A DNA stretch of 43,718 nt from NCBI GenBank assembly GCA_001820095.1, contig MHOO01000003.1:66987-110704 (forward strand), written 5' to 3'. Numbering within the stretch: the first letter of the stretch is position 1; every line of letters begins with the position of its first letter. This DNA comes from Candidatus Staskawiczbacteria bacterium RIFCSPHIGHO2_01_FULL_39_25 (GTDB taxonomy: Bacteria; Patescibacteriota; Minisyncoccia; Minisyncoccales; Staskawiczbacteraceae). Below, one piece after another: positions 5,163 to 43,718 of this stretch. The notes below the pieces were generated by a model that was not told the origin of the DNA, did no database searches, and worked only from the letters and a program-made list of their open reading frames with translations. The translations under genes and the position numbers were made by a program.

Positions 5163-5249
5163 ACATTTAACAATTAACATTTAACAATTGACAGTAAATG
5201 GCTAACGGTTTTTGTCACATGTCAAATGTCAATGGTCAAATGTCACATT
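5163..5249 (+). repeat. 7-nt periodic hairpin, type A (CAATTGA/TGTCAAA)
   Basis: Left arm ACAATTAACATTTAACAATTGAC, right arm GTCACATGTCAAATGTCAATGGTCAAATG, running into the rpmG ATG. Confidence 0.85.
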
Positions 5250-27543: not shown

Positions 27544-28765
27544 AATTAAATCTATAAAAGCTTCCGAAATCAAAGACTCGCGCGGCAAGCCGACGGTTGA
27601 GGTTGAGCTAATTACTGAAAAGGGCAGTTTTGTGGCGTCTTGCCCTTCGGGCGCTTCTACGGGAAAAAATGAGGCTTTAGAATTAAGAGATGCAGATGGC
27701 AGGGGAGTTTCAAAGGCTATAGAAAATGTAAATAAGATTATTGCGCCAAAATTAGTTGGCAAAGACCCTTCAAATCAAAAAGAACTGGATGATTTGATGA
27801 TTGCCTTAGATGGTACTCCCAATAAATCAAAATTAGGCGCTAATGCTATATTACCCGTTTCCATGGCTATTTGCAGAGCCGGCGCTGCCGCAAAGAAAGT
27901 TCCTCTTTATCAGCATATTGCCGATCTCTCCGGATTCAATCTTCCAGCTTCCAGCTTCAAGCTTCCATTAGCTTGTTTTAATATTTTAAACGGCGGCGCT
28001 CACGCTAAAAATGATTTAGAGTTGCAGGAATTTATGGTAGTACCCATGAAAAATACATTCCAGGAAAATTTAGTATTGGGAAGCCAAGTATTTAATGCGC
28101 TGACTGAATTGTTAAAGCAAACTCCTGGCGGAGTGCCCAATATGGGAGATGAAGGAGGATATGCTCCGCAAATTTCAACCGCAGAACAGGCACTATTTTT
28201 AATTAAAAGCGCTATTGGCGAGCATAAAGAAGTGAAAATCGCATTGGATTGCGCAGCTTCAGAATTTTACCGAGATGGAAAGTATGAAGTTGAAGAGGGC
28301 AAACAGTTGTCGCGCAACGAAATGATTGAATTTTATAAAGATTTAGCTGGCAGGTTTCCAATTATATCTATTGAAGATGCGTTTTCAGAGGAAGATTGGG
28401 AGGGTTTTAAGGAAATCCGCCATGAACTTCCCGAGGTAATTATTATCGGTGATGATTTGACTACCACCAATATTAGTAAAATAAAAGAAGCCCAAAGCAA
28501 GCAGGCCTGCAATGGAATTATTATAAAACTAAACCAAATCGGGACGGTTTCAGAAACCATTGAGGCGGTAAATTTGGCGAAAAGTTACGGTTGGAAAATT
28601 ATGGTAAGCCATAGGTCAGGTGAAACATTAGATAATTTTATTGCGGACTTGGCAGTGGGAGTTGGTGCGGATTTTCTAAAGGCAGGAGCTTACACAAAAG
28701 AAGAAAGGATGGTAAAATACAATAGGTTGTTGGAAATAGAAAGTGAATTTGCTAAAAGCAAATAA
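27536..28765 (+). CDS. eno: Enolase
   Basis: DSRGKPTVEV, PSGASTG, LGANAIL, GDEGG, IKLNQIG, SHRSGET. Confidence 0.98.
   Translation: MSKIKSIKASEIKDSRGKPTVEVELITEKGSFVASCPSGASTGKNEALELRDADGRGVSKAIENVNKIIAPKLVGKDPSNQKELDDLMIALDGTPNKSKLGANAILPVSMAICRAGAAAKKVPLYQHIADLSGFNLPASSFKLPLACFNILNGGAHAKNDLELQEFMVVPMKNTFQENLVLGSQVFNALTELLKQTPGGVPNMGDEGGYAPQISTAEQALFLIKSAIGEHKEVKIALDCAASEFYRDGKYEVEEGKQLSRNEMIEFYKDLAGRFPIISIEDAFSEEDWEGFKEIRHELPEVIIIGDDLTTTNISKIKEAQSKQACNGIIIKLNQIGTVSETIEAVNLAKSYGWKIMVSHRSGETLDNFIADLAVGVGADFLKAGAYTKEERMVKYNRLLEIESEFAKSK
27941..27968 (+). repeat. Four heptamers (CTTCCAG-like) inside eno
   Basis: CTTCCAG CTTCCAG CTTCAAG CTTCCAT, encoding LPASSFKLP. Confidence 0.7.
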
Positions 28766-28850
28766 ACATTTGACCATTGACATTTGACAATTGACAACGG
28801 AAAAACGAAACGACGGTCAAATGTTAATTGTCACATGTTAAATGTAATAT
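28766..28850 (+). repeat. 7-nt periodic hairpin, type A
   Basis: CATTTGACCATTGACATTTGACAATTGAC ... GTCAAATGTTAATTGTCACATGTTAAATG; fills the whole eno-gpmA gap. Confidence 0.85.
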
Positions 28851-32262: not shown

Positions 32263-34665
32263 ATGGAAGAAAAAAGTAAAAAAAATATAGTGTGGTTTAA
32301 GGATTTGAGCATCAAAGATGTTGCGCTGGTTGGCGGCAAAAATGCTTCGCTGGGTGAAATATATAATAACTTAGTGCCTTACGGCGTGCGCATTCCTAAC
32401 GGGTTTGCCACTACGTCCGAGGCATATTTTTTGTTTTTAGATGCGACAGGATTAACAAAAAAAATACAAGAAATTTTAAAGTATATTAATGTCCACGATC
32501 TGAAAACTTTACAGGAAAAAGGTAAAAAAGTAAGGGGATTAATTATGAGCGCGGAACTTCCCTTGGATTTAAAAAATGAAATTGTGGAAGCTTATAAAAA
32601 ATTATCAGAAGAATATAAATCTAAAAATGTGGATGTTGCTGTTAGGTCATCGGCTACTGCTGAAGATCTGCCGGGGGCTTCTTTTGCCGGCCAGCAGGAA
32701 ACTTTTTTAAATATTACCGGAGAAAAAAACGTATTGGAGGCCGTAAAAAAATGTTTTGCTTCCCTTTTTACCGATAGGGCTATAGTTTACCGGCAAGAAA
32801 TGGGGTTTGGCCATACTAAAGTAGGGTTATCGGCTGGAATACAAAAAATGGTAAGGTCCGATGTGGCATCTTCCGGAGTAATGTTTTCTTGTGATACCGA
32901 ATCGGGTTTTGCTGATGTTGTGTTGATTAATGCAAGTTTTGGCCTGGGAGAAAATGTGGTATTGGGCAGGGTTGAACCAGATCAATATTATATTTTTGAG
33001 TCTACGTTAAAAAAGGGATTTAAGCCGGTTATTGAAAAGAAGATCGGGTCAAAGCTGATAAAAATGGTTTATACTGCTAATCCGAAGGCGCCGACAAAAA
33101 ACGTATCAACATCGGCTAAAGAAAGACAGAGTTTTGTGTTATCTGATGATGAAATTTTGCAATTGGCCGAATGGTCACTGTTGGTTGAGGAACACTATCA
33201 AAAGCCTATGGATATGGAGTGGGCAAAAGACGGCAAAAACGGAAAATTATATATTGTGCAGGCGCGGCCGGAAACCGTGCAAAGCAAACGGAATGTTAAT
33301 GTGCTAGAAAATTATGTTTTGCAAAAGACCGCCAGCGCAAAAATTCTCGCCAAAGGAATGTCAGTTGGAAGTAAAATAGGTTCAGGAAAAGCCAATAAAA
33401 TAATGTCAGCAAAAGACATTAATAAATTTAAAAAAGGAGAAGTGCTGGTAACGGGCATGACTGATCCTGACTGGGTGCCAGCGATGAAATTGGCCTCGGC
33501 TATTATAACTGACCAAGGCGGAAGAACGGCGCATGCGGCCATTGTGTCACGCGAATTGGGAATTCCTTGTATTGTGGGAGCTTCAAATGCCACCAAAACT
33601 ATAAAAACGGGCACCGAAATAACCGTAGATTGCTCGGGCGGCGAACATGGGCTAGTGTATCAAGGGCTTATTCCATTTAAGGTCAATAAAACTGATATTT
33701 CAAAAATAGAAAAACCAAAAACAAAAATACTCATGAACTTAGCCGATCCTTCACAGGCATTTAATTTAAGTTTTATACCTAATGATGGAGTGGGGCTAGC
33801 CCGCGAGGAATTTATTATTGCTAATACTATAAAAATCCATCCTAGCGCGCTGATTAATTATAAAAAATTGCCTTCCGCACTGCGTAAAAAAATTGATGCG
33901 CTTTCGGTTGGCTATGAAGATAAGACGCAGTTTTATGTAGATAAGCTGGCCGAGGGAGTTGGAAAAATTGGAGCGGCATTTTATCCTAAGCAAGTTATTG
34001 TGCGATTCTCTGATTTTAAAACGAATGAATATCGGGGATTGATCGGCGGAGAATTGTACGAACCTGAAGAAGAAAACCCTATGATCGGCTTTCGCGGAGC
34101 TTCACGATACTATCATGAAAAATTCAAGGAAGCCTTTATATTAGAATGCAACGCTATTAAGAAAGCAAGAGAAGAATTTGGCATAGATAACATTGCGGTT
34201 ATGGTGCCATTTTGCAGAACCGTAGAAGAAGGTAGAAAGGTACTAGAAATAATGGAAGCAGCAGGTTTAAAAAAAGGCGAACGCGGCTTAAAAATATTTG
34301 TCATGGCTGAAATTCCTGCAAATATTATATTGGCCAAGCAGTTTTTGGAAATTTTTGATGGATTTTCTATTGGCTCAAATGACTTGGCCCAATTAACGCT
34401 GGGACTAGACCGTGATAATTCAGAAATAGCGGCTGTGGGAAATGAAAAAAATGAAGCAGTAAAAGAACTGATTAAAGAAGTAGTAAAGGTTTGTAAAGAA
34501 AAGGGCAAGTATTCGGGAATCTGCGGCCAAGCGCCGAGCGACTTTCCCGATTTCGCTGAATTTCTGGTAGAATTAGGAATAGAGTCTGTTTCTTTAAATC
34601 CGGATTCCATTATTAAGACAATGTTGGTAGTTTCAGAGAAAGAAAAACAGTTAAGCGACAATTGA
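32263..34665 (+). CDS. ppsA: Phosphoenolpyruvate synthase
   Basis: GGKNASLGE, RSSATAEDL, QARPETV, GGRTAHAAIVSRE, GFSIGSNDL, ICGQAPSD. Confidence 0.98.
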   Translation: MEEKSKKNIVWFKDLSIKDVALVGGKNASLGEIYNNLVPYGVRIPNGFATTSEAYFLFLDATGLTKKIQEILKYINVHDLKTLQEKGKKVRGLIMSAELPLDLKNEIVEAYKKLSEEYKSKNVDVAVRSSATAEDLPGASFAGQQETFLNITGEKNVLEAVKKCFASLFTDRAIVYRQEMGFGHTKVGLSAGIQKMVRSDVASSGVMFSCDTESGFADVVLINASFGLGENVVLGRVEPDQYYIFESTLKKGFKPVIEKKIGSKLIKMVYTANPKAPTKNVSTSAKERQSFVLSDDEILQLAEWSLLVEEHYQKPMDMEWAKDGKNGKLYIVQARPETVQSKRNVNVLENYVLQKTASAKILAKGMSVGSKIGSGKANKIMSAKDINKFKKGEVLVTGMTDPDWVPAMKLASAIITDQGGRTAHAAIVSRELGIPCIVGASNATKTIKTGTEITVDCSGGEHGLVYQGLIPFKVNKTDISKIEKPKTKILMNLADPSQAFNLSFIPNDGVGLAREEFIIANTIKIHPSALINYKKLPSALRKKIDALSVGYEDKTQFYVDKLAEGVGKIGAAFYPKQVIVRFSDFKTNEYRGLIGGELYEPEEENPMIGFRGASRYYHEKFKEAFILECNAIKKAREEFGIDNIAVMVPFCRTVEEGRKVLEIMEAAGLKKGERGLKIFVMAEIPANIILAKQFLEIFDGFSIGSNDLAQLTLGLDRDNSEIAAVGNEKNEAVKELIKEVVKVCKEKGKYSGICGQAPSDFPDFAEFLVELGIESVSLNPDSIIKTMLVVSEKEKQLSDN

Positions 34666-34745
34666 CCATTGACAATTGACAATTAACCATTAGCCGCGTT
34701 TTATCGTTGGTCAAATGTTAAATGTCAAATGTTAATTGTTATATT
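34660..34745 (+). repeat. 7-nt periodic hairpin, type A
   Basis: ACAATTGACCATTGACAATTGACAATTAAC ... GGTCAAATGTTAAATGTCAAATG; the left arm overlaps the ppsA stop. Confidence 0.85.
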
Positions 34746-42417: not shown

Positions 42418-42496
42418 TTTAACAATTAACAATTAACAATTAACAATTGACCAACGGTTGTCAAAGGTCAAATGTCAATGGTCAATTGTCGTTAAA
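42417..42496 (+). repeat. 7-nt periodic hairpin, type A
   Basis: (AACAATT)x4 GACC ... GTCAAAGGTCAAATGTCAATGGTCAATTGTC. Confidence 0.85.
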
Positions 42497-42822: not shown

Positions 42823-42894
42823 GCCGGTGTAGCTCAGCGGTAGAGCAACGCTTTTGTAAAGCGTGGGCCAGGTGTTCGAATCACCTCACCGGCT
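42823..42894 (+). tRNA. tRNA-Thr(UGU)
   Basis: GCCGGTG/CACCGGC, ACGCT-TT-TGT-AA-AGCGT, GTTCGAATC. Confidence 0.95.
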
Positions 42895-42940: not shown

Positions 42941-43071
42941 AGTAAGTGCAGATAAAATTAAACAAACAACTAAGACCAATATATTTTAAAAACTAAATTA
43001 GTTTTAAAAATATCCGCGTCCCGATGTAATGCAAGCATCGTATCGGGACGCGGGTGTTTTTTTCCATAGTC

Positions 43072-43311: not shown

Positions 43312-43718
43312 ATATTTGAGAGTTTGATCCTAGCTCAGGGTGAACGCTGGAAATGTGGATACCGGCATGCAAGTCAAGGGGCAACGCATCACTTTGCGAG
43401 TGATGCGACGGTTGACAATTAACATTTAACAATTGACGACGAGTTTTTTAAAAAGCTCAATAAAGTCAAATGTCACATGTCAAAGGTCAAATGTTGCGCA
43501 TCGCGCGCAGCGTGATGCGTTGCACCGGCGAACGGCTTAGTAACACGTAGATACATACCCAAAAGTGGGGCATAGCTCGTCGAAAGACGGGGTAATTTCC
43601 CATAGTCCTGCAAAGGTAAAGGCGCAAGCCGCTTTTGGAATGGTCTGCGGTCTATCAGCTAGTTGGTGAGGTAATGGCTCACCAAGGCTATGACGGATAG
43701 GGGGCGTGAGAGCGCGAC
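43312..43718 (+). rRNA. rrs: 16S rRNA, 5' part (start approximate, truncated by window)
   Basis: AGAGTTTGATCCTAGCTCAG, CATGCAAGTC, GGCGAACGG, TAGTTGGTGAGGTAATGGCTCACCAAGGC. Confidence 0.97.
43381..43523 (+). other. Enlarged V1/helix 6 of 16S containing a type A heptamer hairpin
   Basis: GCAACGCATCAC/GTGATGCGTTGC closing stem encloses ACAATTAACATTTAACAATTGAC ... GTCAAATGTCACATGTCAAAGGTCAAATG. Confidence 0.85.

Follow-up and report, generated by a model that had tools for sequence, protein, structure and literature searches.

A heptamer-hairpin element, probably of the intervening-sequence kind, in helix 6 of a Staskawiczbacteria 16S rRNA gene

The 16S rRNA gene of Candidatus Staskawiczbacteria bacterium RIFCSPHIGHO2_01_FULL_39_25 carries a genuine insertion in helix 6 (V1), a block of 139 nt located at positions 43383-43521 of the analysed window. 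The window is a stretch of 43,718 nt (G000:C3:66987-110704) in a genome, referred to as G000, of 743 kb and 12 contigs. We regard the block, with moderate confidence, as a gene-less insertion of the intervening-sequence (IVS) type, which would adopt the shape of a rod of about 65 bp and would probably be cut out by RNase III.

Introduction

The discovery of IVSs in rRNA genes and of the small S23p/IVP genes dates back to about 1990; to our knowledge, there is still no agreement on the origin and function of these IVSs. IVSs excised by RNase III are found in helix 25 and helix 45 of 23S rRNA in Salmonella, Yersinia, Leptospira and Coxiella, and rare cases are known in 16S rRNA. The Coxiella IVS features tandem heptamer repeats at the RNase III cleavage site, as well as an S23p/IVP gene; cleavage by RNase III occurs at the first of these repeats, and degradation of the excised RNA follows (PMC4990558).

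In CPR bacteria, short rRNA insertions occur at known IVS sites, and short non-intron insertions at the corresponding sites of 23S genes are thought to be IVS-like (PMC11270868). 23S_rRNA_IVP ORFs have been recorded in insertions of both 16S and 23S genes in this group (PMC11270868). Short insertions lacking ORFs were catalogued in the same survey and left uncharacterised (Tsurumaki et al. 2024, PMC11270868); neither "repeat" nor "hairpin" appears as a word in its main text.

Results

Extent and components of the helix 6 insertion

The 16S gene is truncated by the contig end at position 304 of the Rfam model. The first 407 nt of the gene lie on this contig, and the 3' end is found on contig C5. 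Of the helix 6 hairpin, it is the tip that is enlarged, with 122 nt against 3 positions of the Rfam model. The stretch reaching from GCATGCAAGTC to GGCGAACGG measures 151 nt (43376-43526), and the net gain of helix 6 due to the inserted block is 133 nt. A preliminary description of this DNA had placed an expanded V1 of about 143 nt at 43381-43523, which is essentially right. The parts of the insertion and its surroundings are as follows.

43312-43718, plus strand: 5' part of the 16S rRNA gene (RF00177, 197.7 bits, E 6.6e-59, model positions 1-304)
43378-43382, plus strand: native base of helix 6, 5' strand GGGGC, pairing with 43522-43526
43383-43521, plus strand: inserted block of 139 nt, replacing the 6-nt tip of helix 6 (C-GCAA-G)
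43385-43407, plus strand: left GC-rich clamp hairpin, CGCATCAC-TTTGCGA-GTGATGCG
43412-43437, plus strand: left heptamer arm TTGACAATTAACATTTAACAATTGAC, read as TTGACAA TTAACAT TTAACAA TTGAC (type A, AATT-type units)
43442-43459, plus strand: AT-rich apical hairpin GAGTTTTTTAAAAAGCTC, taken from the fold
43465-43494, plus strand: right heptamer arm GTCAAATGTCACATGTCAAAGGTCAAATGT, read as GTCAAAT GTCACAT GTCAAAG GTCAAAT GT (type A, AAAT-type units)
43497-43519, plus strand: right GC-rich clamp hairpin, CGCATCGCGC-GCA-GCGTGATGCG
43522-43526, plus strand: native base of helix 6, 3' strand GCACC, from Rfam and the sister alignment

The 139-nt copy contains no ORF, and hence no PF05635 ORF within its stem. 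None of the group I and group II intron covariance models reached its gathering score in the window, and the intron interpretation was ruled out for lack of such a match; a group I intron in the 16S gene of a relative (G007) was detected by the identical search.

Other features of the rRNA loci were noted. Between a tRNA gene (42823-42894) and the 16S leader, positions 43013-43064 combine a strong GC-rich hairpin with a subsequent T-run and look like an intrinsic terminator immediately in front of the rRNA gene. The 3' end of the 16S gene features an insertion of about 466 nt near E. coli position 1400 (C5:11810-12275), which includes neither an ORF longer than 80 aa nor heptamer arrays and may be an intron-type element. 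On C5, about 10 kb of gene-containing sequence separates the 16S 3' end from the start of the 23S gene, both being on the same strand.

Helix 6 in related genomes

Sixty relatives were searched with the 16S fragment, and the stretch from GCATGCAAGTC to GGCGAACGG was extracted and compared. Helix 6 is a GCAA-capped hairpin of 18 nt in eight genomes of the same genus, and the sequence AAGGGGCC-GCAA-GGCACC (18 nt) was read in G002, G006, G008, G009, G011, G021 and G023. Several further relatives have 20-22 nt at this place. Aligned with these sister sequences, which have the 18-nt hairpin at the same site, the block proves to be a derived insertion. Extra sequence at a helix tip that is missing from close relatives is a hallmark of IVSs.

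Two relatives share parts of the insertion. G007, the 16S gene of which is 87% identical to that of G000, has a homologous 163-nt version of helix 6 with TTGACAA-type arms, and two metagenome contigs from other samples contain exactly this form. In G016, both clamps found in G000 are present but enclose another hairpin, made of AAATCAA-type units. A rough rRNA tree places G000, G007, G016 and G002 together, with weak support; G002 lacks the insert, and the distribution of the helix 6 insert is therefore patchy. No target-site duplication is visible when filled and empty helix 6 sites are compared; judging from its distribution, the element may be mobile.

A second 16S site, located about 80 nt downstream of helix 6 (43607-43616), is occupied by a 10-nt hairpin, CCTGCAAAGG, in G000. 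Inserts of about 210 nt featuring a third clamp type, CCAAAAC..GTTTTGG, are found at this site in G007 (L002) and G021 (L017), with heptamers of the AAATCCT type in the former and of the CTAATTA type in the latter. In G002, the site is masked (N).

A dispersed family of heptamer hairpins

The core of the insertion belongs to a family, called type A, of about 27 paired hairpins in G000, three of which are in rRNA genes and 24 outside. Members consist of TTGACAA-like left units and GTCAAAT-like right units placed around a short AT-rich centre. The 16S copy has this layout, with four plus four heptamer units around the AT-rich tip; TTTTT/AAAAA palindromes resembling this tip are found centrally in other members. 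Besides rRNA, type A copies occur on contigs C3, C4 and C11. The majority occupy the gap separating two genes, and most stop no more than about 20 nt short of the next start codon. The gene upstream takes its TAA stop codon from the first unit (TAACAAT) in 9 of the 27 copies. When read in the direction of the neighbouring genes, about 20 of 24 copies have the AATT-type arm as the 5' one. Four members lacking clamps are present in the window.

5167-5246, plus strand: type A hairpin upstream of rpmG, containing the exact 23-mer discussed below
28763-28841, plus strand: type A hairpin in a gap between two genes
34655-34742, plus strand: type A hairpin in a gap between two genes
42419-42492, plus strand: type A hairpin in a gap between two genes

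The identity over 23 nt with the left arm upstream of rpmG, claimed in the preliminary description, is exact. The 23-mer ACAATTAACATTTAACAATTGAC starts at positions 5170 and 43415, and the left arm of the 16S copy includes the sequence common to 5170-5192; none is expected by chance (100 shuffles). The right arm (43465-43494), said to match the type A consensus, fits the right arms of other members. In addition, the 16S copy has exact runs of 17-23 nt in common with eight other members. Among 325 family pairs, 28 have runs of at least 23 nt in common; the longest common run of a pair has a median length of 16 nt. Since matches of 23 nt are ordinary inside the family, the identity with the rpmG copy, as a sequence match, indicates family membership only, and the rpmG copy was rejected as the donor.

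Type A copies in the 23S gene

The start of contig C5 is occupied by the 5' part of the 23S gene (857 model positions), which is encoded on the minus strand and contains two type A elements.

C5:265-417: type A element in 23S helix 25, with the same layout as the 16S copy and GC clamps
C5:829-973: type A element in the 23S linker after GGAGGAAAAGAAA (Rfam model positions 225-232), likewise with the layout of the 16S copy and GC clamps

Helix 25 is a classical IVS site. We take the linker site (model positions 225-232) to lie between H11 and H13 on the E. coli map; the label "helix 9" was rejected for this copy, as the site follows GGAGGAAAAGAAA at these model positions. Helix 6 of 16S rRNA may be such a site as well.

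Both 23S sites are empty in some relatives and filled in others. Helix 25 is empty in G008, G012 and G024 (13-19 nt), as is the linker site in G012 (17 nt), and inserts of 200-570 nt are found at the two sites in other relatives. Among the inserts at one given 23S site, the clamps are common, and the heptamer type and the cargo vary.

Helix 25 inserts of 430-550 nt were observed in G016, G010, G019, G006, G002, G007 and G023 (L041, L043, L046 and L048-L051, respectively). They have common clamps and different heptamer types, and contain small ORFs of 62-98 aa. Several of these cargo ORFs are antisense to the rRNA and are found beside a conserved TTGACA-containing stretch, the sequence of which looks like a promoter.

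GC-rich clamps are specific to rRNA copies

Within the type A family of G000, GC-rich clamps flank all three rRNA copies and none of the 24 copies outside rRNA. The energy of the duplex formed by the flanks ranges from -25 to -39 kcal/mol in the three rRNA copies (-38 kcal/mol in the 16S copy) and from -3.8 to -13 kcal/mol in the 24 others. The 16S copy thus departs from the intergenic members in its location in an rRNA gene and in the possession of clamps. The clamps bear on the proposal, made in the preliminary description, that the insertion derives from an intergenic repeat. The part of it that stands is that the core is found in the dispersed type A family. The insert is more than a copied intergenic repeat, as the rRNA copies add a clamp pair that is missing in the 24 non-rRNA copies and recurs in rRNA of several CPR lineages. 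A direction from intergenic DNA to rRNA does not follow.

The clamps are also found outside G000. The left (L) clamp motif is present in the 16S genes of G007 and G016, in metagenome 23S contigs and in rRNA of other CPR lineages. Matches to the pattern of the right (R) clamp were obtained at 14 CPR loci, each of them part of an rRNA gene, and come from Saccharibacteria, Nomurabacteria, Paceibacterota and Staskawiczbacteria. The pattern matched metagenome contigs four times, always in rRNA; two of these matches, in a 23S gene, have the clamps of the G000 16S copy around CTAATTA-type heptamers.

A slightly degenerate R-clamp pattern, searched in public genomes, matched 26 contigs. Ten of the 26 are CPR contigs, and all ten matches are inside rRNA genes; besides the four groups just named, these contigs include other Patescibacteria. 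Most of the CPR matches feature CATCAC-ATTGCAT-GTGATG as the L clamp, lineage-specific heptamer arms, and CATCGCGC-GCA-GCGTGATG as the R clamp; the L clamp was not recovered by pattern in two of the ten. Among the non-CPR matches, 15 of 16 are in GC-rich DNA and feature neither an L clamp nor heptamers; these 15 were treated as chance matches, the other parts of the element being absent.

The difference between the L and R clamps is identical across distant lineages. Judging from these sequences, L and R are therefore distinct conserved modules, rather than products of a recent target duplication.

Two loci are described separately. A contig labelled Elusimicrobia NORP122 (L074, NVTF01000182.1) has a complete clamped element with type A-like arms, ACAATTGAC and GTCAAATGT, the heptamer type being that of G000; this may be a misbinned CPR contig or a sign of transfer. 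The Patescibacteria MAG S139_169 (L080) has two clamped hairpins of 117 nt, 100% identical to each other, at two sites of one 23S gene, with arms consisting of GTTGATA x3 and CTAAAAA x3.

Predicted fold of the insert

RNA corresponding to 43377-43525 folds into a single long helix of -65.4 kcal/mol, compared with -37.2 +/- 3.3 kcal/mol for shuffled sequences (z = -8.6). The insert thus has the extended double-stranded stem, fit for RNase III, that is typical of IVSs. For all three rRNA copies, the fold of minimum energy is a single long rod (-65.4, -92.8 and -77.7 kcal/mol). According to the folding model, the clamps pair with each other, which allows the 16S insert as a whole to become a rod of about 65 bp. 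The clamp portion of this rod (12+5+11 bp) is almost perfect, and the heptamer stem is imperfect, with about 19 of 26 positions paired.

The clamps may also fold locally. For each of the rRNA copies, the rod is favoured by 11-14 kcal/mol over a four-way junction in which L and R form local hairpins, and the clamp duplex is more stable than both local hairpins in each of the 19 elements tested. The local hairpins of the consensus clamps are fully Watson-Crick, and the rod includes two A-C and three G-U pairs; in the helix 25 insert of G023, it is the long-range pairing that is perfect. Clamp substitutions point both ways between the rod and the local hairpins.

Hairpin energies and G-U counts, determined for both strands of 26 copies, revealed no bias towards the transcribed strand, so that the palindrome may be a feature of the DNA rather than a selected RNA structure. 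The motif GUGAUG prompted a comparison of the clamp with a C-box or K-turn, which was ruled out, as the partner strand is fully complementary.

Heptamer types and IVP genes

The heptamer type found in V1 recurs in the same genome in other relatives as well. The V1 inserts of G016, G019, G050 (AAATCAA-like), G015 (CACGAAT) and G041 (TCGAAAT) match 8-32 other places in their own genomes, and the controls G008 and G006 gave 0-1 matches. By sequence, the V1 heptamer type is thus, in each of these five genomes, that of the genome's own dispersed family. In G041, the copy in 16S helix 6 and one within the 23S gene have 98% identity over 134 nt. G041 is a relative from another family; its two copies map to C8:26896-27029 and C9:61867-62002, the 23S one in a domain I hairpin (model positions ~152-177), and about 30 more diverged copies are found elsewhere in the genome.

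Four PF05635 (23S_rRNA_IVP) genes are present in G000, on contig C11 (48499-48807, 49368-49655, 104350-104664 and 167767-168081), and their heptamer arms are of four different types. One of them is part of a cassette with type A arms (C11:104294-104832; PF05635, 94.8 bits), in which the IVP is encoded at C11:104330-104704. When the IVP proteins of G000 and G007 are compared, identity is 85% for the type A-armed pair and 92% for the ATCTTGA-armed pair, and does not exceed 53% for every other pair. Identity tracks the type of arm, and gene and arms therefore travel together. PF05635 genes are found in 24 of the 25 genomes of the genus. G000 also has an RNase III gene (PF14622, 126.7 bits, 242-aa open frame, C4:46212-46607).

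The link between the family and rRNA IVSs, proposed in the preliminary description, is borne out by the two 23S copies, by the IVP-bearing member and by the similar situation in five other genomes. A long V1 in relatives devoid of repeats was not encountered: G007, which has a V1 insert, has the repeats, too.

Discussion

Excision or retention of the insert

In every feature that could be tested, the 16S insert is like a bacterial rRNA IVS, and its removal from mature rRNA is predicted by analogy. The element would be transcribed as part of pre-16S rRNA. Clamps and heptamers would pair into a rod, and RNase III would cut at or near the boundary between clamp and heptamers, as extrapolated from Coxiella. 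Cleavage would leave the 16S rRNA in two pieces split at helix 6, one of about 75-95 nt and the remainder, which the ribosome and the clamps could keep together. The element is made of two layers. The outer layer is formed by the L and R clamps, present only in rRNA copies and recurring in several CPR lineages; the inner layer is the type A hairpin, a gene-bearing family member of which carries 23S_rRNA_IVP (PF05635).

Reasoning by analogy, we put excision at somewhat better than even, ahead of retention as an expansion segment, which we regard as a clearly less probable outcome. If retained, the insert would protrude from the small-subunit spur into solvent as a rod of about 65 bp, which would either be neutral or offer a binding surface to a protein, for instance the cognate IVP. 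Helix 6 is peripheral in the ribosome structure and points into solvent, which makes a retained rod physically possible; the rod is highly stable, RNase III might act poorly on the heptamer stem because of its mismatches, and the insert is conserved in two species, G000 and G007. In some Firmicutes, moreover, insertions in V1 reportedly remain part of the rRNA. Set against these points is the tendency of the genus, which otherwise reduces helix 6 to 18 nt. One of the two sister copies in the 23S gene is at helix 25, where IVSs are known to be excised (PMC11270868), and, among characterised elements with heptamer repeats, the closest relative is one that RNase III excises (PMC4990558). Removal of CPR rRNA insertions from transcripts has also been reported, in the words of the survey that cites Brown et al. 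for it (PMC11270868).

Other accounts of the insert fare worse. Helix 6 may have been lengthened in place by replication slippage, the resemblance to the family being due to convergence in AT-rich DNA. Heptamer arrays are indeed prone to slippage, and the number of units differs among copies, yet this account appears highly improbable: the exact 23-nt match and the many matches of 17-20 nt to the family have an expectation of 0 by chance, and the core of arm, AT-rich tip and arm is found in other copies, too. The 98% identity of the 16S and 23S copies in G041, the two 100%-identical copies in a single 23S gene of L080, and the identical clamps at different rRNA sites argue against it as well. 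Least probable of all is an assembly chimera, in which a copy of the repeat was misjoined into the 16S gene near a contig end. Although the contig ends 197 nt past the insert and the remaining 16S sequence is on another contig, both flanks are collinear with 16S, and the insert is placed exactly at the helix tip. A homologous insert is found at the same place in G007 and in two metagenome contigs from different samples, and the same clamps are found at helix 6 in G016; a chimera is therefore very unlikely.

CPR rRNA IVSs in general may be built on a conserved chassis of two hairpins that has two working states, an idea that we advance as speculative and rather doubtful. Pairing of L (CATCAC-ATTGCAT-GTGATG) with R (CATCGCGC-GCA-GCGTGATG) would extend the heptamer stem into an RNase III substrate, and, after the cut, each clamp would refold into a perfect local hairpin, capping the new 3' and 5' rRNA ends against exonucleases. 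The exchangeable arms would be recognised by the cognate IVP four-helix-bundle proteins of the genome, which would keep rRNA and intergenic copies alike.

Comparison with known elements

The insert shares several features with IVSs excised by RNase III, such as an extra stem-loop on the tip of a surface helix, a long double-stranded stem and a patchy occurrence across species. G000 also has a sister copy in 23S helix 25, and close relatives lack the insert. The combination of heptamers and S23p/IVP known from Coxiella has a parallel elsewhere in the G000 genome, where type A arms bracket a PF05635 gene. In contrast to classical IVSs, the copy discussed here lacks an ORF and is inserted in 16S helix 6, its excision being predicted by analogy. 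A further difference is that the core occurs about 24 times outside rRNA, and that the rRNA copies have a conserved pair of clamps.

The short CPR insertions surveyed earlier (PMC11270868) are similar with regard to host group, size (<200 bp), location at the tip of a stem-loop and absence of an intron signature. However, the links to a heptamer family, to cognate IVP cassettes and to shared clamps are drawn here and not in that survey. In the literature searched, which covers IVSs, Coxiella heptamers and short CPR insertions, we found no tie to genome-wide heptamer hairpins, and neither cognate IVP cassettes nor shared clamps were found described.

As small hairpin repeats present in dozens of copies in both orientations, the elements are reminiscent of Rickettsia palindromic elements, REP/REPIN and ERIC-type sequences, and MITEs. 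Like such dispersed palindromic repeats, they are located between genes and sometimes in structural genes, and are gained or lost between close species. Unlike them, they have arms made of tandem 7-nt units rather than unique inverted repeats, show no target-site duplication at helix 6, and are associated with a gene encoding a four-helix-bundle IVP.

Significance

The present analysis adds the occupation of three rRNA sites in one genome and the corresponding empty sites in sister species, as well as clamps that are specific to rRNA copies and recur across several CPR lineages. The element offers testable handles, namely a defined RNA substrate for RNase III, defined RNA ends, and cognate pairs of IVPs and heptamers. 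V1 insertions of this kind alter amplicon length and alignment in CPR 16S surveys. In a single small genome, one sequence family is found in four settings: helix 6 of the 16S gene, two sites of the 23S gene, about two dozen intergenic gaps, and the two sides of an IVP gene.
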